Shown: in pieces, positions 6,343 to 52,898 of the stretch
How positions within the stretch are numbered: position 1 is the stretch's first letter
How the letters are laid out: each line of letters starts with the position of its first letter
NCBI GenBank assembly: GCA_964436545.1
Contig: CAYTCJ010000001.1
Coordinates: forward strand, 142,392-206,391
From: an uncultured Candidatus Saccharibacteria bacterium
GTDB taxonomy: Bacteria; Patescibacteriota; Doudnabacteria; UBA920
Length of the DNA stretch: 64,000 nt
Reading direction: 5' to 3'
Translations under genes and position numbers: made by a program
Notes under the pieces: generated by a model
The model's database searches: none
What the model was told of the DNA's origin: nothing
Seen by the model: only the letters and a program-made list of their open reading frames with translations

Positions 6343-6345
6343 TTA

Positions 6346-6422
6346 GTTAGCAGTTAGCAGTTAGCAGTTATCAGTTATCAGTTATCAGTTATCAGTTATC
6401 AGTTATCAGTTATCAGCAATCA
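6346..6422 (+). repeat. heptanucleotide tandem array (11 units: GTTAGCA x3, GTTATCA x7, GCAATCA x1)
   Basis: Counted directly; lies between the candidate lexA promoter and the lexA ATG. Confidence 0.9.
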
Positions 6423-6471: not shown

Positions 6472-7089
6472 ATGCCCAAAGAAATTACCAAAAGACAAAA
6501 AGAATTGCTCCAATTTATTATTAGAGAAATACGGGAACACAATTTACCGCCAAGTTTTTCGGAAATGATGGACTATTTTAAATATCGTTCTAAAAACGCC
6601 ATTGCCAAAATTTTAAAAGTTTTAGAACGAGAAGGTTATGTTAAAGTTTCCGGCAAGGCTCGCGGGATTGAAGTGCTCAAAACTTTAGGTGAAAGTTTAG
6701 AAAAGGGTTTGGTTAGCGTTCCACTTTTAGGCAATATCCAAGCCGGTAGCCCGCATTTGGCCGAAGAGCAAGTGGAAGAATGGATTAATTTACCCACTTC
6801 GCTTATTCGGGGCAGACGTGATGTATTTTTGTTAAAAGTGAGGGGAGATAGTATGGTAAATGCCGGAATTTATGAGCACGATTTAGTAATTGTCAGGCCG
6901 GTTAAAGAAGCTAAAAATAACGATATTGTTGTGGCACTGCTTCATGATGAAGCTACAGTAAAACGATTAATTTACGTAAAAAATCGAGCTTACCTAAAAG
7001 CTGAAAACCCTAATTATAAAAATATTTACCCTAAAGAGGAATGGATGATCCAAGGAAAAGTGGTGGGAGTGATTAGACAGCTTGAGTAG
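6472..7089 (+). CDS. lexA: LexA repressor
   Basis: Winged-helix N-terminal domain plus S24 peptidase domain with cleavage site and catalytic motifs (GNIQAGSP, RGDSMVNAGI, TVKRL). Confidence 0.93.
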   Translation: MPKEITKRQKELLQFIIREIREHNLPPSFSEMMDYFKYRSKNAIAKILKVLEREGYVKVSGKARGIEVLKTLGESLEKGLVSVPLLGNIQAGSPHLAEEQVEEWINLPTSLIRGRRDVFLLKVRGDSMVNAGIYEHDLVIVRPVKEAKNNDIVVALLHDEATVKRLIYVKNRAYLKAENPNYKNIYPKEEWMIQGKVVGVIRQLE

Positions 7090-8697: not shown

Positions 8698-8915
8698 ATA
8701 TTGGGCAAGAATTATGAATTTTAAATTATGAATTAAGCAATGAGATTTATTTAACATTATCACTTTGCGGGTGACCACCCGAAGGGTGGGTGATAGCGCT
8801 ATAGACAGAATGATGAAAAACCAATTAACATTTACCAGCTTATCACAATGCTTTGTTTTTTTCAATATTTTATGACATAATATAAACACTGCATAGTTAA
8901 AACTTAAAAAGCTAA

Positions 8916-16373: not shown

Positions 16374-18212
16374 CTATTTATCTTTTAATTTCGGTAGATC
16401 CAACTTTATATGCAATTCTTTAAGTTGTTTTTCTTCCACAGTTCCGGGGGCGGACATCATTACATCTTCGGCACTGCCATTTTTAGGAAAAGCAATAACT
16501 TCTCTAATGTTATTTTCGTTCTCTAAGAGCATTAACAGTCTGTCTATCCCTGGCGCAAAACCGCCGTGTGGGGGTGCGCCGTATTCAAACGCACGAATCA
16601 TCCCGCCAAATTTTTCATCTACAGTTTTTTTGTCATAACCGACCAGTTCAAAGGCTTTATACATAATTTCCGGTTTGTAGTTGCGAATGGCGCCACTGGA
16701 AAGCTCGAGGCCATTGGCAATAATGTCGTATTGGTAAGCTTTAATAGTTAACGGATCGTGGTTGGTTAAAGCTTCCAGTCCGCCTTGAGGCATAGAAAAT
16801 GGATTGTGCATAAAATCCAATTTGCCTTCTTTATTCAGTTCATACATAGGAAAATCGGTAATCCACGCCCAAGCAATTAGGTTGGGATCTTTTAGATTAA
16901 ACAGATCACCCAAATGATGGCGAAGTTTGCCTAAAACTTTGTTAACCACTTCGCGACTGTCAGCCCCAAAGAAAATTATGTCGCCGGTTTGGGCTTGGGT
17001 TTTGGAAATTATTACTTGAGTTTCGTCTGGAGAGAGAAACTTAAGAATGGGGGAACGTAATTTTATTCCATCAACTATCACCCCTCCCTGACCCTCCCCA
17101 TCAGATGGGAGGGAATTATTTTCGCATACAATATACGCCAGACCGCCGGCGCCTTCTTTTTTAACAAATTCGGTAAGGTCATCAATTTGCGAGCGGGTGA
17201 GTTTGGCTCCACCTTTACAGCAAATCGCTTTTACCGCTCCACCACTTTTTAAGGCATTACCAAATACGCTAAAGCCGGTGGTTTTAAGCTCAGCCGATAA
17301 ATCTATAAGTTTCATTTCAAATCTTAAGTCCGGTCTGTCACTCCCGTATTCTTCCATAGCTGTAAGGTAGGGTAGGCGAGGAAAAGGTTTTTGCAAACAT
17401 TTTTTTTGCGCAAATTCTTCGGTGAGTTTAATAAACAAAGGTTCCATTTCGTTAAAGACCACCTCGTCTTTGTCCGCAAACGCAATTTCTAAATCTAATT
17501 GATAAAATTCACCCGGACTGCGGTCGGCTCTGGGGTCTTCGTCTCTAAAACAGGGTGCAATTTGAAAATATTTTGGCACTCCGCTTACCATTAACAATTG
17601 CTTAAATTGTTGAGGGGCTTGCGGGAGAGCGTAAAATTTTCCCGGGTGCAGGCGGGAAGGCACTAAATAGTCGCGGGCGCCTTCCGGACTGCTGGAGGTT
17701 AAAATGGGCGTGGTAATTTCTATAAAGCCTTGGGCATCCATCCAGTCGCGAATGAATTTAATCATTTTATGCCTTTTAAAGAGCATGGTTTGCATTTTTT
17801 CTCTTCGCAAATCCAAAAAGCGATATTTGAGACGAATGTCCTCGTTGGCTAATTGGTTTTGTTCGCCATGTCCGTGGGCGACCTGAAAGGGGAGGGGCTT
17901 TGAGGAATTTAAAAGTTGTAAGTTGTAAGTTGTAAGTTCTATGTTCCCAGTGGGAAGATTTGGATTTTTGGTTGCATCACTACGTTCTACCACTTGACCA
18001 TCTACTCTAATAACAAATTCATCTCTACATTTATCAGCCACAGAAAAAGCCTCAGCTTGGTCCGGATGAATGGCTAATTGGACCAAACCAGTATGATCTC
18101 TAAGATCAATAAAAATAACGCCTCCGTGGTCTCTTCGGGAGTTTACCCAACCGGATAAACTAACGGTTTGACCAACAAGCTTTGGCGTTTCTATGCAAAG
18201 TGTTCTTTTCAT
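16374..18212 (-). CDS. aspS: aspartyl-tRNA synthetase (bacterial type with GAD insertion domain)
   Basis: Class II motifs (FRDEDPRADRSPEF-like FRDEDPRADRSPGEFYQLD, GGFAPGIDRLLMLL) and an OB-fold N-terminus. Confidence 0.95.
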   Translation of the reverse strand: MKRTLCIETPKLVGQTVSLSGWVNSRRDHGGVIFIDLRDHTGLVQLAIHPDQAEAFSVADKCRDEFVIRVDGQVVERSDATKNPNLPTGNIELTTYNLQLLNSSKPLPFQVAHGHGEQNQLANEDIRLKYRFLDLRREKMQTMLFKRHKMIKFIRDWMDAQGFIEITTPILTSSSPEGARDYLVPSRLHPGKFYALPQAPQQFKQLLMVSGVPKYFQIAPCFRDEDPRADRSPGEFYQLDLEIAFADKDEVVFNEMEPLFIKLTEEFAQKKCLQKPFPRLPYLTAMEEYGSDRPDLRFEMKLIDLSAELKTTGFSVFGNALKSGGAVKAICCKGGAKLTRSQIDDLTEFVKKEGAGGLAYIVCENNSLPSDGEGQGGVIVDGIKLRSPILKFLSPDETQVIISKTQAQTGDIIFFGADSREVVNKVLGKLRHHLGDLFNLKDPNLIAWAWITDFPMYELNKEGKLDFMHNPFSMPQGGLEALTNHDPLTIKAYQYDIIANGLELSSGAIRNYKPEIMYKAFELVGYDKKTVDEKFGGMIRAFEYGAPPHGGFAPGIDRLLMLLENENNIREVIAFPKNGSAEDVMMSAPGTVEEKQLKELHIKLDLPKLKDK

Positions 18213-19139: not shown

Positions 19140-20039
19140 TTGTCAAAGTTAAAAATCCCCAGCATAATTATTTTTGTAACCGTCTTAATTTATTTTTTAA
19201 GTTTGGTTTTTTCCGGTCGCTGGGTTTTACCTCAAATTATATCTTTCGGAGCGCTATCGATTCACTATTACGGAATAGTTATGGCTGTGGCAGTGGGTTT
19301 TGGTTATAAATTGGCCATGCACCGAACGCAACTTTATGAAATAGCTTTACCTTGGGCGGAAAAATTATTTTTTTGGGTAATTATTGGCGGATTGGTTGGA
19401 GCTAGAATTTATCATGTTTTTTCATCGGTTAGTTATTATTCTTTGCACCCGATGGAGATTTTAAAAGTTTGGCATGGCGGTTTGTCTATTTACGGCGCTT
19501 TGATTGGTGGATTTCTGGCTTTGCTTCTGTGGAAAAAACTTACAACTTACCTGCCTTGTCGGCAGACAGGCAACTTACCTGCCTTGTCGGCAGACAGGCA
19601 ACTTACAACACTTCTAAATTGGCTAACTCCCTCGCTCATTCTCGGTCAAATTATTGGTCGGTTTGGAAATTTATTTAATTACGAAGTTTATGGTTACCCG
19701 ACTAATTTACCTTGGAAGTTATTTGTGCCCAATGAATTTAGAGTTTTGGGTTATGAAGCTTTTGCTTTCTATCACCCGTGGTTTTTATATGAACAAATCG
19801 GCTTAATTTTAATTTTCATCCTCTTTAAGGTGTATTTTAATTTAAAATCCGAGCGCTTGTTTGTTTACTACGTTTTATTGTATAATTTAATGAGATTTGG
19901 TCTGGAATTTTTAAGAATTGATAGCCATTTCATTGGGCCTTTTAGGCAAAATGCTGTGGTGAGTTTATGCTTTGCGGTGGGGGCTTTGGGTTTGATAATT
20001 TATTGGAGAGTTTTAAAATCAGCTAACAATGCGTCTTGA
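19140..20039 (+). CDS. lgt: prolipoprotein diacylglyceryl transferase with an in-frame repeat insertion
   Basis: Lgt motifs (HYYGIVMAVAV, GARIYHV, WHGGLSIYGALIGG, GRFGNLFNYEVYG). Confidence 0.9.
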   Translation: MSKLKIPSIIIFVTVLIYFLSLVFSGRWVLPQIISFGALSIHYYGIVMAVAVGFGYKLAMHRTQLYEIALPWAEKLFFWVIIGGLVGARIYHVFSSVSYYSLHPMEILKVWHGGLSIYGALIGGFLALLLWKKLTTYLPCRQTGNLPALSADRQLTTLLNWLTPSLILGQIIGRFGNLFNYEVYGYPTNLPWKLFVPNEFRVLGYEAFAFYHPWFLYEQIGLILIFILFKVYFNLKSERLFVYYVLLYNLMRFGLEFLRIDSHFIGPFRQNAVVSLCFAVGALGLIIYWRVLKSANNAS

Positions 20040-32549: not shown

Positions 32550-32990
32550 TTATAATATTTTATTTGTGCCCCCGCTTTGATTAGTTTTTTGTGAGTTTAA
32601 GGCTTCGGCAAGTGGTCTTTCCAGAATAATTTCTTTATTTTTTAACTTAAATCCGACAAGAATACCAGGGATGAGAAAAGTAAGTAGAGTTATTGCTTTG
32701 ATTGGATTTTTTGAAATTATATTCAAGAAATCATGTAAATAAAAATTTTTAAAAGAAGTATTACCGATAAGCATAAGTCCAAAAAATGAAATCAGAAATG
32801 TTGAGCCGATAGAAGTTAGTCTTGCTCTTATTCCTCTAAGGTAATATGGATTAACGTGTTCACTCTTTATAATATTAAAATTTTTTTGGTTATGATATCG
32901 ACCTAATATTGACATTTCACCAGTTATTAACCCATGACTAAAGTAGCCAATCGCAACTCCAAATATTAAACACAATAAATATCCCAACAT
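32550..32990 (-). CDS. hypothetical membrane protein (146 aa)
   Basis: Four hydrophobic segments; no family recognised. Confidence 0.5.
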   Translation of the reverse strand: MLGYLLCLIFGVAIGYFSHGLITGEMSILGRYHNQKNFNIIKSEHVNPYYLRGIRARLTSIGSTFLISFFGLMLIGNTSFKNFYLHDFLNIISKNPIKAITLLTFLIPGILVGFKLKNKEIILERPLAEALNSQKTNQSGGTNKIL

Positions 32991-33269
32991 GTTTGTATTA
33001 ATTTAATGTTTATTAAATACATTATACCAAGATTTTTTAATTATTAGTAGCTCTAAAAAAGGGTGAGTTAAACTACCATTATTCCTCTTGCCTAAGTTTT
33101 ATTTTTGGATTATTATAATTACAAACGAATACACATACCAAAACACAGCCAAAAATTGTTAGAGAAATGAGGCTGTTTTATTTTATCACCGATCACAGAT
33201 AGCACAGATACAGGATTTTAAAACAAAAATTAGTGAATTAGTGTTATCGGTGATCTGTGGACAATATTT

Positions 33270-34490
33270 ATGGATCAAACTTATTTAAAAGAATTAATTG
33301 AAGAAGTCAATAAACGCCAAGGCGGGGTGATTTTGAATTTGGATAATTCGCCTTCGGCCGTGGTTTTGTCCATTGAAAAATATAATCAGTTAATCAGCAA
33401 TCAGCAATCAGCGAATCAGCAATCAGCAATCAGCGAATCAGCAATCAGTAGTTCCTCCTTCGCTTCCAACTTCGCTGATGCTTCGTTGGACAAGAAAGCT
33501 ATGGAGGATAAACAGCAGTCAGCGAATCAAACCATTTTGGTTACCGGCGGGGCAGGGTATATTGGCGCGCATTTGGTTAAACAACTTTTGCATGCCGGGT
33601 ATAAGGTTGTGGTGGTGGATAATTTATCTACCGGTAAAAGAGAAAACGTTCCCAGCCAAGCAATTTTCTTAGAAGGCGATTTAGCCGATGTAAATTTTTT
33701 GCGTGATGTGTTTTCCGCGCATAACATTTCCACAGTTGTGCATTTGTCCGCATCGATTGAAGTGGAAGAATCGGTAAAAGAACCGGTAAAATATTTTGAA
33801 AACAATGTTTTAAATTCCGCTAAACTGCTTTTGGTTATGGATGAGTTTAATGTGCGAAAGTTAATTTTTTCTTCCACCGCAGCCGTGTATGGAGAACAAA
33901 AACAACAACCCATTTCCGAAACTGCCCTCCCAAAGCCCAATAATCCTTATGGACACAGTAAACTGTTAGCCGAGCAAGTGATTGAATATTACTGCACTCA
34001 TAAGCAATTTACCGCAGTGGTGTTTAGATATTTTAATGCTTGTGGGGCGGATTTTGAAGGCAATATAAAAGCTACGCACGAATCGCATTTGCTCGCCAAA
34101 GTTATGCAAGTGGCGCACGGCCATGTTGCGCAAATTGTGGTGAATGGGGCCGATTACCACACCCCGGACGGCACTTGTGTCCGGGATTATGTGCACGTGT
34201 TGGATATTGTCGGTGCCCATATTTTAGCGTTAAATAAATTCGGAGAGTTAAAAGGTTTTGAGGTTTTTAATATTGGCACTGGCCAAGGAGTAAGCGTTTT
34301 GGAAATTATTAATGCCACAGCGGAATATTTAAATAAAATGATTCCTATGCAAATGGGGGAAAGGCGAGCGGGCGATGCGGAAGAAACCGTGGCTGATGCG
34401 GAAAAAATTAAACAGTATTTGGGTTTTAAACCCATGTTTAGCGATTTGGAAACCATAGTCAAAACAGCTTATAAACAATCGGCGAATTAA
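33270..34490 (+). CDS. galE: UDP-glucose 4-epimerase with an in-frame N-terminal Phd/YefM-like extension
   Basis: GalE core begins near VTGGAGYIGAH with YGHSKLLAE catalytic motif. An internal ATG at 33501 would give a normal-length GalE of about 330 aa. Confidence 0.85.
   Translation: MDQTYLKELIEEVNKRQGGVILNLDNSPSAVVLSIEKYNQLISNQQSANQQSAISESAISSSSFASNFADASLDKKAMEDKQQSANQTILVTGGAGYIGAHLVKQLLHAGYKVVVVDNLSTGKRENVPSQAIFLEGDLADVNFLRDVFSAHNISTVVHLSASIEVEESVKEPVKYFENNVLNSAKLLLVMDEFNVRKLIFSSTAAVYGEQKQQPISETALPKPNNPYGHSKLLAEQVIEYYCTHKQFTAVVFRYFNACGADFEGNIKATHESHLLAKVMQVAHGHVAQIVVNGADYHTPDGTCVRDYVHVLDIVGAHILALNKFGELKGFEVFNIGTGQGVSVLEIINATAEYLNKMIPMQMGERRAGDAEETVADAEKIKQYLGFKPMFSDLETIVKTAYKQSAN
33384..33449 (+). 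repeat. AATCAGC-type heptanucleotide array (7+7+8-nt pattern) inside the galE ORF
   Basis: Counted directly; encodes ISNQQSANQQSAISESAIS between the Phd-like part and the GalE part. Confidence 0.9.
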
Positions 34491-34530
34491 TTTTAGCTAA
34501 AATTTTAAAAATCAAAAAATTATTTTTTTT

Positions 34531-34556
34531 GCTTCATTGACGGCCGTCAATGAAGC
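34531..34556. repeat. 26-bp perfect palindrome
   Basis: GCTTCATTGACGG|CCGTCAATGAAGC with no loop, at the left edge of the GC-rich island. Confidence 0.9.
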
Positions 34557-34663
34557 AAAGAACTATTTTAAGAAAAAAATTAATATAAAAATGTTAAAGC
34601 CCGAACGAGTCCTCCTAGGTTCGTTCGGGCTTTTGGGTTTGTGGGAGGTATTTCAACCCCCCG

Positions 34664-35281
34664 TTATAATACAACCACCTCGAACGAGAATCGTTCGGGG
34701 GGCAAATCGTGGTGCGGGGGCGGGGACATCGTCTCCCACGACCGAAAGGCCGTGGCAGACAGTGTCTGCCCCATAAAAAACAAAAAGTTGTCGGAGACGC
34801 AATTTAGTGGAAGGGGTTGCCGGAATGCCAGCCGGAGGCCTACGGCCTCCAAAAGTTCAGCCTCGGGCCGAACTCCTTTGTCCGCCAAGAGGCGAACAAA
34901 GCTAGATCTGCCCGCGTGGGGCCATATATCCGGCGCGAGGCAGGGCTTAAGCACCGGCGTGCGTGCAAATACCTCCTCGCAGTTTACCATCCACGTTTGG
35001 ATGGCGTTGCCCCAATGCCACGCTCGCACAACCGCGAGGTGGCGCTCCACTACATTGAGCGCGAAGTCAAACTTCCGACGCTCAATTGCGCCTTCTCCTG
35101 CCACCAAGTCCAGTGGGGTGGTTGGGACGAGGTCGTCCTTTTCCACTACTTGCTGGGCGAGCGACAGGAGGTGGTCCTTGCGCGGGGGGTTTCCGCCGTT
35201 ATGGACCAATAACGGCGGAAGCTCAAACTTTTTTTCTCCGGGAAGTTCAAGAAAAACCCGGTCGCCGATTTGAGTCGGCAT
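34664..35281 (-). CDS. orphan GC-rich hypothetical protein (205 aa), likely horizontally acquired
   Basis: ATG at 35281 is preceded by AGGAGG (35292-35297) and a TTGCCA-18-TATAAT promoter. Hand tally shows GC enrichment at third codon positions of this frame. No family recognised. Confidence 0.45.
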   Translation of the reverse strand: MPTQIGDRVFLELPGEKKFELPPLLVHNGGNPPRKDHLLSLAQQVVEKDDLVPTTPLDLVAGEGAIERRKFDFALNVVERHLAVVRAWHWGNAIQTWMVNCEEVFARTPVLKPCLAPDIWPHAGRSSFVRLLADKGVRPEAELLEAVGLRLAFRQPLPLNCVSDNFLFFMGQTLSATAFRSWETMSPPPHHDLPPERFSFEVVVL

Positions 35282-35323
35282 TTTTTTTATACCTCCTATT
35301 TGATTTAGTACTGCAAGGTTTTG

Positions 35324-35617: not shown

Positions 35618-36340
35618 ATGAAAAAATTATCTGTAATTATTCCGGCCTATAACGAAGCGCAGAGAATAGAAAAAACTTTGCTTTCTGTGAGTGAGTTTTT
35701 AAAACAACAGACCTATGAAAGCGAGATTTTAGTCGTGAGTGATGGGAGTAAAGATGAAACAGAAGTTGTAGTTCGTCGTTTAGAGAATCAGATACCAAAT
35801 TTATCTATCATCCCCAATAAAGCCAATCACGGGAAAGGCTGGGTGGTAAAGCAAGGGATGCTAAAAGCCAGTGGGGATGTAAGAGTATTTATGGATGCGG
35901 ATAATTCCACTAAAATTGAGGAAATTAGCCAATTTATTCCGTTGTTGGAGCAAGGGTTTAGTGTGGTAATTGGTTCTCGCCGAACAGAAGGTGCCAAAAT
36001 TGCCAAACACCAAGGCTTAATTAGGGATTTTTTAGGCGGAGTTTTTCGGCTCATTGTCCATACTTTAGTGCCTTTGGGCGTAACCGATTCTCAGTGTGGT
36101 TTTAAGGCCTTTACCGCCACTTCGGCAGAAATGATTTTTCCGAAACAAAAAATTTTTCGCTGGGCCTTTGATGTGGAAATTTTAGCCATTGCCAAACAAT
36201 TAAAGTTTAAAATCAAAGAGTTGCCCATTACTTGGGTAAACGATGGTGAAAGTCATGTAAAGCTGGGCGGAATGGTGAATATGCTGTGGGAAATTGTGCA
36301 AATTAGAATTAATTTATGGCTGGGAAAATATGAAAAATAA
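35618..36340 (+). CDS. family 2 glycosyltransferase (polyprenol-phosphate sugar synthase-like)
   Basis: SVIIPAYNE, VSDGSKD and DADNS motifs. Confidence 0.88.
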   Translation: MKKLSVIIPAYNEAQRIEKTLLSVSEFLKQQTYESEILVVSDGSKDETEVVVRRLENQIPNLSIIPNKANHGKGWVVKQGMLKASGDVRVFMDADNSTKIEEISQFIPLLEQGFSVVIGSRRTEGAKIAKHQGLIRDFLGGVFRLIVHTLVPLGVTDSQCGFKAFTATSAEMIFPKQKIFRWAFDVEILAIAKQLKFKIKELPITWVNDGESHVKLGGMVNMLWEIVQIRINLWLGKYEK

Positions 36341-37976
36341 TTTTCAATTTTCAATTTTCAATTTTCCAATTAAGGTTTTTTTAGCCTTATGTGCTTTTTT
36401 TGTGTTGTCACAAAATGTTTTTGCTTACCAAGTGGGGATAAACCAAATTGTGTTAAACGATCCGGGTTATACCCAAAATGCTAACGATGTAGACAAGTCT
36501 TGGGGGTTGGTAAAAACCGCAGTCTTGCCGGTGTGGGAAAAAAATATCGGTTCTAAAGAAGTGGTAGTGGCAATTATAGATACCGGTGTAGACGCGACGC
36601 ACGAAGATTTGCAAAGTATCAATTGGGTAGAGGGCTTTGATGTATTAAACAGAAAATTAATTACCGGAAAAATCAATTCCGATGATAACGGCCACGGCAC
36701 ATTGATTGCCGGAGTAATTGGCGCCACGCCCAATAATTTAGTAGGGATTGCCGGTGTGGCTTGGCAAGTTTCCCTTATGCCCATTAAGGCTTTAGATGCC
36801 AAAGGTAAAGGGGATACGGCTAAAGTGGCAGAAGCGATTATTTGGGCAGTGGACCACGGCGCGCAAATAATTAATTTGTCAGTCGGGGGGATTGGTTTTG
36901 GGCGGGATAAGATTTTATCGGAAGCCATTACTTACGCGTATAGAAAGAATGTGGTGATTGTGGCAGCCGTGGGGAATGATTCCACCACCACTGCGGTAAA
37001 TTTGGACGAACAACCCGTGTATCCGGCTTGCGAAGATAACGGAGAAAATATGGTAATTGGCGTAAGCGCCATTGACCAGAACGATTTAAAACCCGAATTT
37101 GCCAACTTTGGAAAAAATTGTGTAGATGTGGTGGCGCCCGGCAAACGCATTTTATCTACAATTAACCACGACCCGGTTACACATAATTATTCGCCCAATG
37201 CCTATGCTTATGCTTCGGGTTCGTCTTTGGCTACGCCATTTGTAACCGGACAAGCAGTGCTTATTAAATCCGCTTTTCCTTATGCCACCAATGCGCAAAT
37301 TAGAGAGAGAATTTTAATGACTGCGGATAAAGTTGATATGCTGAATTTGTCCCAGTGTTTGGGCAGGTTATGCGCCGGGCTTTTAGGGCAGGGAAGAATT
37401 AACGTTAAAAATAGTTTGGATACGCAAATTTTACAAACCGCTTTTTTGGAAGGGGATTTGTTAAGATCCACTCAAACCGGCAATGTGTATTTTTACACTG
37501 CGGGGAAAAGAATGTTAGTGTCCAGTTTTGTGTATAACCAAAGGTTTTTAGGTTTATTTGTTAAAAATTTGCCCGAAGAACAACTTACCCCGATTCCCGA
37601 AGGCCCTTACGCTTTGCCGGCGGAAAACACTTTGGTTAAAGCAGAAAAAGATAAAACCGTTTACCTCATTAAAAATAACCAAAAATTACCCGTTTCAGCC
37701 AAAGTGTTTGCTCAAAGAGGGTTTAAGTTTTCCCAAATTCAAGTGGTGAGTTTTGCCGAATTAAACTCTTGGGTGCCGGGAAATTTTTTGGCGCCAATAG
37801 ATGGCACCATAGTTAAAAGTCTAAATGGCAAGCAAACGTTTTGGACTTTAAACGAAACCTTAAGGCCCATTAATCAACAATTTATTAAAGCTCGGGGTTT
37901 GGGCGGTTTTCCCAAATTGGTTTTTAGCGACAAAGAGCTTACCGGCTTTGCCAAAGGTGAGTCACTAATTAAGTAA
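36330..37976 (+). CDS. secreted subtilisin-like serine protease (S8) with C-terminal repeat modules
   Basis: Catalytic triad motifs IIDTGVD, NGHGTLIAG and SGSSLATPFV. Signal peptide. Start set at the ATG at 36330, which overlaps the previous stop. Confidence 0.9.
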   Translation: MKNNFQFSIFNFPIKVFLALCAFFVLSQNVFAYQVGINQIVLNDPGYTQNANDVDKSWGLVKTAVLPVWEKNIGSKEVVVAIIDTGVDATHEDLQSINWVEGFDVLNRKLITGKINSDDNGHGTLIAGVIGATPNNLVGIAGVAWQVSLMPIKALDAKGKGDTAKVAEAIIWAVDHGAQIINLSVGGIGFGRDKILSEAITYAYRKNVVIVAAVGNDSTTTAVNLDEQPVYPACEDNGENMVIGVSAIDQNDLKPEFANFGKNCVDVVAPGKRILSTINHDPVTHNYSPNAYAYASGSSLATPFVTGQAVLIKSAFPYATNAQIRERILMTADKVDMLNLSQCLGRLCAGLLGQGRINVKNSLDTQILQTAFLEGDLLRSTQTGNVYFYTAGKRMLVSSFVYNQRFLGLFVKNLPEEQLTPIPEGPYALPAENTLVKAEKDKTVYLIKNNQKLPVSAKVFAQRGFKFSQIQVVSFAELNSWVPGNFLAPIDGTIVKSLNGKQTFWTLNETLRPINQQFIKARGLGGFPKLVFSDKELTGFAKGESLIK

Positions 37977-38033
37977 TTTCCAATTTTTAATTTCTAATTT
38001 TTAATAAGGGATTAGTACTAAAAAAATAAACAC

Positions 38034-46715: not shown

Positions 46716-47825
46716 ATGCCCAAAGTAATAATTATTCAAGTCATATATAATAACCGAAAATGGATTGAGCCGGTGTTTAGCGCGATTTTCAAGCAAACTT
46801 TTTCGGATTTTAAAGTGGTGGTAGTTATTGCAGGGAATGAAGATGGGAGTAAAGAATTGTTGTTAGAAAAATTTCCACAGGCCAAGTCCCGTACCGTGGA
46901 CGAATTTTTACAAAATTCGGACTCTGGTACTGGGATGGAAATAATTGACCCAGGCTATAACATTGGTTTTGCCAAGGGGCATAATTTGGTGTTTGAGAAA
47001 TACTGCAACCCCTCCCTTACCCTCCCCATAAAGGGGAGGGAAGAAGAAGGGGTGGAGTTTTTTCAACTAGTTAATCCAGATATGATTATGGAGCCTAATT
47101 ATATTGAGGAGATGTTAAAGGCTTTTAAAGATGAAACAGTGGGGGGAGCGACGGGCAAGCTTTTTAAAATAGCGAGTAGTGAAGAGAGAATAGAGAATAG
47201 AACAGAAAAGATTTTGGATACGACAGGTGTAATAATACAAAAATCCGGTAGGGCCTATGACAGAGGACAGCACGAAGTAGATAAGGGTCAGTATGATTCT
47301 GCTGTGCTGGTGGATGCAGTCTCTGGTGCTGGGGCAATGTATAGGAAAACAGCTTTAGAAGCTGTTAAATATCAAATTCTAAAAAATAAAAACCAAACAA
47401 ATTCCAAATCAATATTATCTACTACCCAACACGAATTTTTTGACGAAGATTTTCATTCTTATTGGGAAGATGTGGACTTAAGCTGGCGGATGAAAAACTT
47501 AGGCTGGAAAAATGTTTTTGTGCCAACTGCGGTGGGTTATCACGGCCGGACTGCCGGGTCATCGCAAGGTGGCTATTGGCGTTTAGTTGATTTTATTCGC
47601 CATCATCGCGCTTTGCCCTTACGCATTCGGCAGTTGAATTACCAAAACCATCTTTTAATGTATATAAAAAATTCACCTTATTTTTACCCGCAGTTTTTTA
47701 TTAGAGAAGTTTTTATGTTGTGTTATGTGTTAATTTTTGAAACCTCGGTTTTAAAAATTATACCCCAACTAATAAAATTACTTCCTCAAGTGTGGAAGAA
47801 AAGAAAATATTTTTATGAGAGATAA
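46716..47825 (+). CDS. family 2 glycosyltransferase with in-frame insertions
   Basis: GT2 pattern (VIIIQVIYNN, GFAKGHN, LVNPD, WEDVDLSWR). Confidence 0.82.
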   Translation: MPKVIIIQVIYNNRKWIEPVFSAIFKQTFSDFKVVVVIAGNEDGSKELLLEKFPQAKSRTVDEFLQNSDSGTGMEIIDPGYNIGFAKGHNLVFEKYCNPSLTLPIKGREEEGVEFFQLVNPDMIMEPNYIEEMLKAFKDETVGGATGKLFKIASSEERIENRTEKILDTTGVIIQKSGRAYDRGQHEVDKGQYDSAVLVDAVSGAGAMYRKTALEAVKYQILKNKNQTNSKSILSTTQHEFFDEDFHSYWEDVDLSWRMKNLGWKNVFVPTAVGYHGRTAGSSQGGYWRLVDFIRHHRALPLRIRQLNYQNHLLMYIKNSPYFYPQFFIREVFMLCYVLIFETSVLKIIPQLIKLLPQVWKKRKYFYER

Positions 47826-51101: not shown

Positions 51102-52898
51102 ATGAAAATTACCGCACAGGAATTAAGAACTAAATATCTGGAATTCTTTCAAACTAAAGGGCATACCATTATTCCTTCGGCGTCTTTAGTGCCGGCCAAT
51201 GATTCTTCGGTGTTATTTACCACAGCCGGTATGCATCCGTTGGTGCCATATTTATTGGGCGAACCTCACCCGGGCGGAAAGCGAGTGGCCAATGTGCAAA
51301 AATGTGTTCGAACGGGCGACATAGACGAAGTGGGTGACGAAACTCACAATACTTTTTTTGAAATGCTGGGTAATTGGAGTTTTGGAGATTATTTTAAACA
51401 AGAAGCCATAGCGTGGAGCTTTGAATTTTTAACTGACCCGAAATGGCTTGGACTCCCGTTAAATCGACTAGCTTTTACCTGTTTTGCAGGCGATGAAGAT
51501 GCGCCCAAAGATACTCAATCAGCCGAAATTTGGAAAAGCTTGGGTGTGCCGGAAACACGTATTTCATTTTTACCTAAAGAAAAAAATTGGTGGATTGCGG
51601 GCGAAACCGGACCTTGTGGGCCTGATACCGAAATGCATTATTGGATAGACGATGGCACACCGGCGCCGGATAGTTATGATCCCAACGAACCGCGTTGGGT
51701 GGAAATTTGGAATGATGTGTTTATGCAGTTTGAAAAAATGGCAGATGGCACATTAGTCCCATTAAAAAAACCGAATGTAGATACGGGTTTGGGTTTAGAT
51801 AGAGTATTGGCGGTATTAAACGGCCAAAAGAGCGTGTATGATACCGATTTGTTTAAGCCCATGTGGGAAGTGATTGGACTTCAAAATGAAATCTTAAGTC
51901 ATGGTGAAATTAAAAAAGCGCGCATTATTTTAGACCATATTCGCGCCAGTGTGTTTATTGTGAGCGATGGCGTTGAGCCTTCTAACAAAGACCGCGGTTA
52001 TGTTTTAAGACGACTATTAAGAAGAAGTTTGGTCATGGGTAAATTATTAAATATAAAAGGTGAATGGCTAAAAGCTTTAGTCGGACAGGTAATTTTTACC
52101 TATGCTTCACCTTATACCGAACTTAGAGATAACAGCGAAAGAATCTTTAACATTATTGAGGCGGAAAAAAACAAATTTGAAGTCACCTTGGAAAAAGGGC
52201 TGAAGCAATTAGAATTAGGAATTAAGAATTATGAATTAGGAATTACGGGAAAAATTGCTTTTGACTTGTATCAGACATATGGTTTTCCCAAAGAACTTAC
52301 CAAAGAATTGGCAGTACAATCCGGTCAAATTTTTGATGAAGCAAAAGAATTGGAATATAATCAAGAATTTAAAAAGCACCAAGAGCTCTCCAGAACCGCC
52401 AGTGCGGGACAGTTTAAAGGGGGACTAGCCAGTCATAGTGATAAAATTGTGCGCTTGCATACCGCTACTCATTTGTTAAATGCCGGTTTAAGGCAAGTTT
52501 TAGGCGATAAGGTGTGGCAAAAGGGGAGTAATATTACGGAAGAACGCACTCGATTTGATTTTACTCACGATAAAAAATTAACCCCCGAAGAAATTTTGGC
52601 TGTGGAAAGTTTAGTGAATGATTGGATAGCCAGAGATTTAAAAGTTAAAAGAGAAGTTATGCCTTTAGAAAAAGCTAGGGAACTGGGTGCCATTGGTGTA
52701 TTTGGCGAAAAGTATGCGAGTGAAGTGTCTATTTATACAGTTTACGATGCCAATTCAGGCGAAATTGTCAGTCGGGAATTTTGTGGGGGTCCGCATGTGG
52801 AGCACACAGGCAGTATTGGGCATTTTAAAATCCAAAAAGAAGAAGCTTCCTCGGCTGGGGTAAGGCGAATTAAAGGTGTAATACAGGATAAAGGCTAA
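51102..52898 (+). CDS. alaS: alanyl-tRNA synthetase, short form lacking the C-terminal C-Ala domain
   Basis: FTTAGMHP, FFEMLGNWSFGDYFK, and editing-domain HTATHLL...CGGPHV. About 599 aa from the ATG at 51102. Confidence 0.92.
   Translation: MKITAQELRTKYLEFFQTKGHTIIPSASLVPANDSSVLFTTAGMHPLVPYLLGEPHPGGKRVANVQKCVRTGDIDEVGDETHNTFFEMLGNWSFGDYFKQEAIAWSFEFLTDPKWLGLPLNRLAFTCFAGDEDAPKDTQSAEIWKSLGVPETRISFLPKEKNWWIAGETGPCGPDTEMHYWIDDGTPAPDSYDPNEPRWVEIWNDVFMQFEKMADGTLVPLKKPNVDTGLGLDRVLAVLNGQKSVYDTDLFKPMWEVIGLQNEILSHGEIKKARIILDHIRASVFIVSDGVEPSNKDRGYVLRRLLRRSLVMGKLLNIKGEWLKALVGQVIFTYASPYTELRDNSERIFNIIEAEKNKFEVTLEKGLKQLELGIKNYELGITGKIAFDLYQTYGFPKELTKELAVQSGQIFDEAKELEYNQEFKKHQELSRTASAGQFKGGLASHSDKIVRLHTATHLLNAGLRQVLGDKVWQKGSNITEERTRFDFTHDKKLTPEEILAVESLVNDWIARDLKVKREVMPLEKARELGAIGVFGEKYASEVSIYTVYDANSGEIVSREFCGGPHVEHTGSIGHFKIQKEEASSAGVRRIKGVIQDKG

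Follow-up and report, generated by a model that had tools for sequence, protein, structure and literature searches.

How does a sugar-nucleotide epimerase come to begin with what looks like part of an antitoxin, and what role does a short DNA repeat lying between the two play? The question is raised by a gene on a 64,000-nucleotide stretch (the window, below) of an uncultured Candidatus Saccharibacteria bacterium placed by GTDB in the Doudnabacteria (contig CAYTCJ010000001.1, positions 142,392 to 206,391; assembly GCA_964436545.1). The open reading frame (ORF; 33270..34490, plus strand) is complete and encodes 406 amino acids plus a stop, and an identical entry (P0001) exists in protein records. 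It comprises a YefM-like N-terminal module (33270..33398, plus strand; residues 1-43), a disordered linker rich in Ser, Ala, Gln and Asn (33399..33530, plus strand; residues 44-87) with a predicted local distance difference test (pLDDT) score of about 56, and a GalE catalytic domain (33531..34487, plus strand; residues 88-406) assigned by TIGR01179 and PF01370 with pLDDT above 90. The initial annotation noted that the frame runs without a stop from the ATG at 33270 through an AATCAGC array into full-length GalE, which it does, and offered two explanations: a small antitoxin-like gene welded to galE by repeat expansion, or a genuine switchable fusion. We favor a third, at a probability of roughly 0.8: an old and real two-domain protein of a Patescibacteria clade (Doudnabacteria, Daviesbacteria and others) rather than a repeat accident, with the array as a later microsatellite of its linker.

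The age of the fusion is evident from its distribution. With the whole ORF as the query, a database of 5.8 billion proteins returned 7985 matches at E ≤ 1e-30, and the best 120 of these were analyzed. All 120 carry the module, linker and GalE in one frame, at lengths of 358-456 residues, 91-100% query coverage and 51-75% identity. The N-terminus aligns without gaps to the consensus MDNxYLQELIxExxxRGGGLILNxxxKPAxVVLTIEKYNQLL, followed after the linker by ILVTGGAGYIG. The start methionine (Met-Asp-Asn, with a complete module) is retained in 103 of the 120 homologues, the remainder being start mis-calls or contig ends. Sources that are named describe a Patescibacteria or Doudnabacteria "GalE" and nothing more; the architecture has thus been missed by annotation. 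The literature search likewise found no description of an antitoxin-epimerase fusion and nothing relevant on Patescibacteria GalE.

A scan with a module-only profile, in which each species was represented by a single genome, gave 31 loci in 31 species-level genomes, labelled Doudnabacteria, Daviesbacteria, "Saccharibacteria" and Patescibacteria. The ORF continues from the module into GalE at every locus where it is complete (30/30), and the remaining one ends at a contig edge. When the profile was run against 1.84 billion cluster representatives, it retrieved 23 proteins only. The 11 shortest and longest of these comprise nine GalE fusions or truncated or frameshifted fragments thereof, one spurious repeat protein, and one standalone antitoxin (P0152). 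Among the other 12, ten have the length of the fusion (355-405 residues), with P0134 and P0147 shorter at 307 and 294 residues; P0137 and P0142 were read and are fusions, P0018 is a fusion known from the whole-ORF search, and for the others only the length was considered. The module is also the better conserved part, with a mean column identity of 66% against 57% for the whole protein. Compared with the nearest strain (L001), it shows eight synonymous and no replacement differences, and compared with a relative at 75% protein identity (L002), 12 synonymous and two replacement differences. Judged from these substitution patterns, the module is under purifying selection.

Neither an upstream frame closed in relatives nor a weld made by the repeat is supported by this distribution. 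The frame is open in the 120 best homologues and in all 30 complete ORFs, and the same architecture persists in most of them with linkers devoid of repeats. L001 retains an intact fusion with only the seed sequence AATCAGCTAATCAGCAA in place of the array. The fusion therefore long predates the array. The internal ATG pointed out in the initial annotation is present and in frame (33501..33503, plus strand; M78), 10 codons 5′ of the GalE strand TILVTGGAG, and by eye no Shine-Dalgarno-like sequence is visible just upstream of it. This methionine is common to the window and L001 and is not conserved further; any methionine within 15 residues before GalE occurs in only 39 of 117 relatives.

By its motifs and model score, the C-terminal part is a complete UDP-glucose 4-epimerase predicted to be catalytically intact. 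Residues 89-402 cover positions 2-323 of the 332 in the TIGR01179 equivalog model at 375 bits (cutoff 262.3), and the domain matches PF01370 at 1.9e-57. The NAD-binding GxxGxxG motif is present (G93-G94-A95-G96-Y97-I98-G99), and the catalytic Ser...Tyr-x-x-x-Lys residues (S201/S202, Y227 and K231) are invariant in an alignment of 96 sequences. The same full-length catalytic domain, with GxxGxxG and S...YxxxK, is found in GalE of the short-chain dehydrogenase/reductase superfamily at large (TIGR01179), from which the present protein differs by its conserved N-terminal module of about 43 residues and its disordered linker of 10-50 residues.

The first 45 or so codons had been likened to the N-terminal domain of a Phd/YefM-type antitoxin, and profile comparison bears this out for about 43 residues. 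Residues 6-60 exceed the cutoff of TIGR01552 (phd_fam; 22.4 bits against 20.8) and match PF02604 (PhdYeFM_antitox) with E = 1.7e-6; at 28.1 bits, the latter match falls slightly short of the 29.8 that Pfam sets as its gathering score. Of 92 orthologous modules tested singly, 74 match PF02604 with E-values of 0.01 or lower (the lowest being 1.4e-7), and matches to other families are essentially absent. Profile-to-sequence alignment (hhalign) of the module profile with P0152 gave a probability of 97.6% (E 4.5e-12, 39 columns). P0152 is a standalone antitoxin of 61 residues carrying PF02604, and in the PDB it most closely matches two YefM-type antitoxins, Rv2865 and RelB1; a homologue search with P0152 as the query retrieved P0152 itself only. 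The AlphaFold2 model of the module (pLDDT above 90) places a helix at residues 3-15, strands at 19-24 and 27-33, and a second helix at 35-43, and the best Foldseek matches in the PDB are RelB2, YefM and RelB1 at template modeling (TM) scores of 0.66-0.72, with 6l8e among the top. Homology to the core of the Phd/YefM antitoxin N-domain is thus well supported, in truncated form and with the formal family threshold borderline.

Parts of the antitoxin are missing from the module. The complete antitoxin N-domain is ordered β1-α1-β2-β3-α2, and the model here is α-β-β-α; the Pfam match begins at position 13 of the 74 in the hidden Markov model (HMM), and the first strand (β1) is therefore absent. P0152 extends 21 residues further at its N-terminus, β1 among them. 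A mis-called start with β1 encoded upstream was considered and ruled out: an in-frame TGA lies at 33234-33236, the intervening codons are unconserved, and the Met-Asp-Asn start recurs in about 100 relatives, in which the conserved Met1 directly precedes helix 1. Toward the other end, everything after HMM position 50-67 or so, where the toxin-binding region of an antitoxin lies, is replaced by the unconserved low-complexity linker and then GalE. A partner toxin gene of the YoeB, Doc, RelE or ParE type was sought among the neighbors in the window and in four annotated relatives, and none was found. Relative to the type II antitoxins of the family (Escherichia coli YefM, 2a6q; phage P1 Phd, 3hs2; Mycobacterium tuberculosis RelB/RelJ), the module lacks β1, the toxin-binding tail and a toxin gene, and it is fused to an enzyme. 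It is a Phd/YefM homologue and not a functional member of that class.

The surroundings of the gene point the same way. The conserved order is a giant CLIPPER-domain surface protein, the fusion gene, a family-2 glycosyltransferase, an S8 peptidase, a protein of about 615 residues, and a flippase of the Wzx/MurJ type (Polysacc_synt/MurJ-type domains). Directly downstream of the fusion gene stands either the glycosyltransferase or, in the lineage of the window, an inserted gene for a 205-residue protein. From its predicted gene content, this is a surface-glycan locus and not a toxin-antitoxin locus.

The repeat itself is real. The initial annotation had described a 22-nucleotide, 7+7+8 periodicity, and Tandem Repeats Finder reports 33384-33448 with a period of 22, 3.0 copies and 95% matches, or alternatively 7.9 copies of AATCAGC; patterns of 14-15 nucleotides of this kind are expected by chance 0.00-0.01 times when the window is shuffled. 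The AATCAGC(G) microsatellite (33384..33449, plus strand) thus holds about three periods of 7+7+8 nucleotides and encodes NQLISNQQSANQQSAISESAIS. At most three perfect AATCAGC units follow one another, a G interrupting every two to three units. Its first codons belong to the conserved end of the module, N39-Q-L-I-S43, where AAT-CAG-YTA-ATC-AGC already holds two tandem copies of AATCAG. With these codons as a slippage seed from which repeats grow into the linker, the recurrence of ISESANQ-like peptides in distant orthologues is accounted for.

Beyond module residue 46, the linker ranges from three to 41 residues across relatives (median 24), and its sequence is unconserved; in most orthologues it is without any repeat. 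In L001, whose protein shares at least 90% identity, the array is missing and this region is 51 nucleotides shorter than in the window, with the frame preserved. L002 carries a degenerate version with 22-nucleotide periodicity, L003 and L019 have AATCAG-type runs of their own, and in L004 another heptamer, AATTTCC, occupies this position. Within a single cluster of at least 90% identity, the window has the array, P0121/L001 is without it, and P0122 has a different one. The array is a recent, strain-level microsatellite of the linker and not what joined the two parts.

On the favored reading, a Phd/YefM core would have lost strand β1 and its C-terminal toxin-binding tail and become an N-terminal appendage of GalE. 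Much later, replication slippage may have expanded the AAT-CAG-YTA-ATC-AGC seed codons into an unconstrained linker, where only length changes by multiples of three would survive, which would explain why the array units stand in 7+7+8 combinations. The Phd/YefM N-domain is an obligate dimer that binds DNA in antitoxins, and GalE works as a dimer. For this reason, the module may be a handle by which the protein self-associates or is tethered, with the linker as its flexible leash. An antitoxin or a DNA-binding repressor role is less likely than such a handle.

Several points weigh against this picture, in addition to the Pfam score just short of its threshold. The Foldseek E-values are non-significant because the module query has only 46 residues, and the module profile found no significant match to any solved structure when compared with PDB sequences. 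Loss of β1 could abolish the YefM-type dimer, and in P0064 the linker is only about four residues long, such that two modules on one GalE dimer might not meet. Finally, gene callers would split out-of-frame alleles, which a protein-based survey could then overlook.

The last point leads to the switch proposed in the initial annotation. In that scenario, slippage by 7, 8 or 22 nucleotides would toggle GalE and with it the surface glycan in the manner of a phase-variable contingency locus, the OFF state leaving a free YefM-like peptide of 55-138 residues. The frame sensitivity on which it depends is borne out by simulation: gain or loss of a single 7-, 8- or 22-nucleotide unit breaks the frame and gives products of 55-138 residues, while changes of 15, 21 or 66 nucleotides leave it intact. 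Array length does differ among strains with proteins over 90% identical, and the genome is strongly enriched in heptamer arrays; two such arrays (36339 and 37974) occupy the 5′ ends of neighboring genes of the surface locus. GalE and surface-glycan genes are classic targets of phase variation, and the tetranucleotide repeats of lic and lgt are established contingency loci. In Haemophilus influenzae, 7-bp repeats drive phase variation of hmw1A and hmw2A, which are simple-sequence-repeat contingency loci (PMC8262952, PMC12721329). The galE array resembles such loci in that its unit is not a multiple of three, it lies in a gene of a surface-glycan locus, and its copy number varies by strain.

It also differs from them. 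The array is short and interrupted, with at most three perfect heptamers or three 22-nucleotide periods, and it sits in an interdomain linker instead of at a 5′ end. The few alleles compared (the window, P0121, P0122, P0002, P0125-127, P0003 and L003) are all in frame, as is every allele recovered, which is a weak test given that the survey is protein-based. The internal ATG is unconserved, and a neighboring TAATTTC array stands at 4.6 copies both in the window and in L001. Most orthologues are free of repeats, and switching therefore cannot be the conserved function of the fusion. A genuine switch at this locus is accordingly considered unlikely.

Heptamer repeats are a feature of the window in their own right. 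Eight period-7 arrays besides that of galE lie in the 64 kb (442-472, 6345-6416, 8709-8735, 17913-17938, 36339-36371, 37974-38005, 47168-47201 and 52207-52245), against an expectation of 0.03, and there are none of period 3-6 or 8. Several stand right upstream of genes or in their first codons, such as the ten copies of AGTTATC that precede the ORF at 6472; others flank the S8 peptidase and 615-residue protein genes of the glycan locus. Relatives also carry arrays of 7-8-nucleotide units just 5′ of the galE start. This genome is prone to heptamer slippage, and the literature search found no report of heptanucleotide repeats in these bacteria. A comparable genome-wide excess is known from the short tandemly repeated repetitive (STRR) heptanucleotide sequences of cyanobacteria, mostly in or near intergenic regions, in another phylum and with other units. 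Two longer repeats were also observed in the window, a perfect 28-nucleotide tandem repeat of 2.3 copies at 19543-19606 (CAACTTACCTGCCTTGTCGGCAGACAGG, which contains an inverted repeat) and a 55-nucleotide repeat of 2.1 copies at 1468-1582.

Regulation through the 5′ leader is the second alternative, and the leader has conspicuous features. A consensus scan predicts a sigma-70-like promoter (33088..33116, plus strand; TTGCCT-17 nt-TATTAT), and at least 12 relatives have a TTGCA..TGnTATTAT promoter in the corresponding position. Downstream of it lies a terminator-like hairpin, here called HP1 (33145..33186, plus strand), in which ACAGCC pairs with GGCTGT ahead of a U-tract and which is preceded by a tract of A and C only. 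HP1 is found at all 34 loci compared (the window and L001-L033), each with the A/C-only tract, an invariant CAGC/GCUG core, a loop of 6-24 nucleotides and the U-tract. In the alignment (A5), pairing is kept in 80% of cells against 43-61% in slid registers, six pairs show double changes, and covariation reaches 0.178 against 0.084 in shuffles (0/500 shuffles attain the observed value). HP1 has no family match in Rfam, and its covariance model finds practically no second copy in 350 kb. At several loci, HP1 comes after both an upstream terminator and a promoter, and its U-tract lies only 4-17 nucleotides before the ATG; HP1 is therefore part of the galE 5′ untranslated region. For galE, it may serve as an attenuator or a leader terminator. 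The possibilities that it is a generic terminator style of the genome or the terminator of the upstream gene were ruled out by its near-uniqueness in 350 kb and by the separate terminator and promoter that precede it at many loci.

Between HP1 and the start codon, the window has a second, lineage-specific element, a long imperfect hairpin (HP2; 33186..33260, plus strand) built from CACAGAT/ATCTGTG and ATCACCGAT/ATCGGTGAT repeats. The RNA of this region (33122-33285) is predicted to fold at -34.4 kcal/mol (z = -3.5; 0/200 shuffles as good). In about half of the relatives (L001, L002, L006, L014-L017, L022, L027 and L030), the same interval holds direct repeats of 5-8 nucleotides followed by inverted copies, among them TCGGAT/ATCCGA, CGAAT/ATTCG and CGCGGAT/ATCCGCG. 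The resulting hairpins are long and imperfect, and their sequence varies by lineage. The notion that these arrays form a conserved operator was ruled out in general, since they are lacking in about half of the relatives.

The corresponding proposal is a trigger enzyme: the YefM-like module would still bind nucleic acid, and GalE would repress its own promoter or leader, so that expression of the glycan locus would follow the sugar-nucleotide status. The precedent is PutA, a trigger enzyme that joins an N-terminal ribbon-helix-helix domain to proline dehydrogenase, and the likeness lies in a small dimeric fold of nucleic-acid-binding type, a flexible linker and a metabolic enzyme. The ancestry of the module in a DNA-binding dimer, the match to 6l8e, the strong conservation of a promoter-proximal HP1 with an invariant CAGC...GCTG core, and the lineage-specific repeats before the start codon all speak for the proposal. 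Against it, the fold here is YefM-like, and conservation is lacking at the positions where contact with DNA would be expected: residues aligned to the basic stretches of P0152 (ISKKNS and ELRTS) are N-L/x and N/Q in the module. These positions are equivalent to R10 and R31 of YefM, which we take to be DNA-binding residues. Strand β1 is missing, and the net charge of the module is about -1. The half-sites of HP1 are 6-24 nucleotides apart, as suits a hairpin and not a fixed dimer operator, and the repeat arrays after HP1 are absent from about half of the relatives. Membership among trigger enzymes is unsupported, and a regulatory GalE of this kind is judged improbable.

The two ideas may also be combined, in that the YefM-derived module would bind nucleic acid, GalE would read its own HP1 leader or promoter such that read-through into the glycan locus is set by sugar-nucleotide or NAD state, and, in strains with linker microsatellites, slippage would add a second, heritable on/off layer; this too is an outside chance. 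Least credible by far is an accidental joining, in which a small antitoxin gene ran into galE by repeat or assembly error with GalE starting at the ATG at 33501, for which one can cite that in-frame ATG and one apparent chimera via AATCAGC-like repeats (P0123/L036), and against which stand the single frame in every relative, repeat-free ones included, the unconserved internal methionine, the absence of a toxin gene from the window and annotated relatives, and an array of 66 nucleotides, expected to be shorter than a sequencing read.

The contig in question is a metagenome contig of 3.9 kb (L036) on which, in the ORF at 312-1826 (P0123), AATCAGC-like repeats (SNQQSANQPDSQSAVS) connect a DnaE fragment (the HHH_6 region) with the galE linker. 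It is probably a chimeric assembly across the repeat. The contig also points to repeats of this type within the dnaE gene of this lineage.

Further features flank the fusion gene. At its 3′ side lies an intrinsic terminator-like hairpin (34525..34562, plus strand) with a 17-pair stem and a T-rich tail, conserved in L001 and L036. The inserted ORF that follows (34667-35281, minus strand; 205 residues) is preceded by a GGAGG Shine-Dalgarno sequence and sits in an island at 34600-35300 with 56-62% guanine plus cytosine (GC) against about 38% around it. Its product matches nothing in Pfam, NCBIfam or PADLOC and has more than 2000 homologues of 205-210 residues, the named ones nearly all from Acidobacteria (Bryobacteraceae and Acidobacteriaceae). 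More distant relatives lack the gene at this position. It looks like a gene acquired horizontally and inserted between galE and the glycosyltransferase. L001 carries an allele only 57% identical between flanks over 95% identical, which suggests a cassette replacement. A structured RNA as the source of the GC-rich island was ruled out by the lack of an Rfam hit, the Shine-Dalgarno sequence with a start codon, and the >2000 protein homologues. On the 5′ side, between the giant surface-protein gene and galE, an ORF of 146 residues (32550-32990, minus strand) appears by eye to encode a membrane protein; it has no family match, and no gene is called at its position in L001 or L034.

For the evolution of toxin-antitoxin systems, the fusion represents a clear instance of reuse of an antitoxin fold: a Phd/YefM core, minus its toxin-binding tail, kept by purifying selection on a housekeeping sugar-nucleotide enzyme across an uncultured Patescibacteria clade. 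Toxin-antitoxin predictors would report an orphan antitoxin here and annotation pipelines a plain GalE, and both would miss the architecture. The locus also offers a view of the birth of a coding microsatellite, in which the conserved N-Q-L-I-S codons would act as a proto-repeat expanding into a tolerant linker. The finding bears on toxin-antitoxin evolution and on the biology of the candidate phyla radiation (Patescibacteria) without adding a new mechanism or kind of system, the function of the module being inferred. Patescibacteria are generally regarded as episymbionts, and the fusion, its leader hairpin and the glycan locus around it are targets for the study of cell-surface control in these bacteria.

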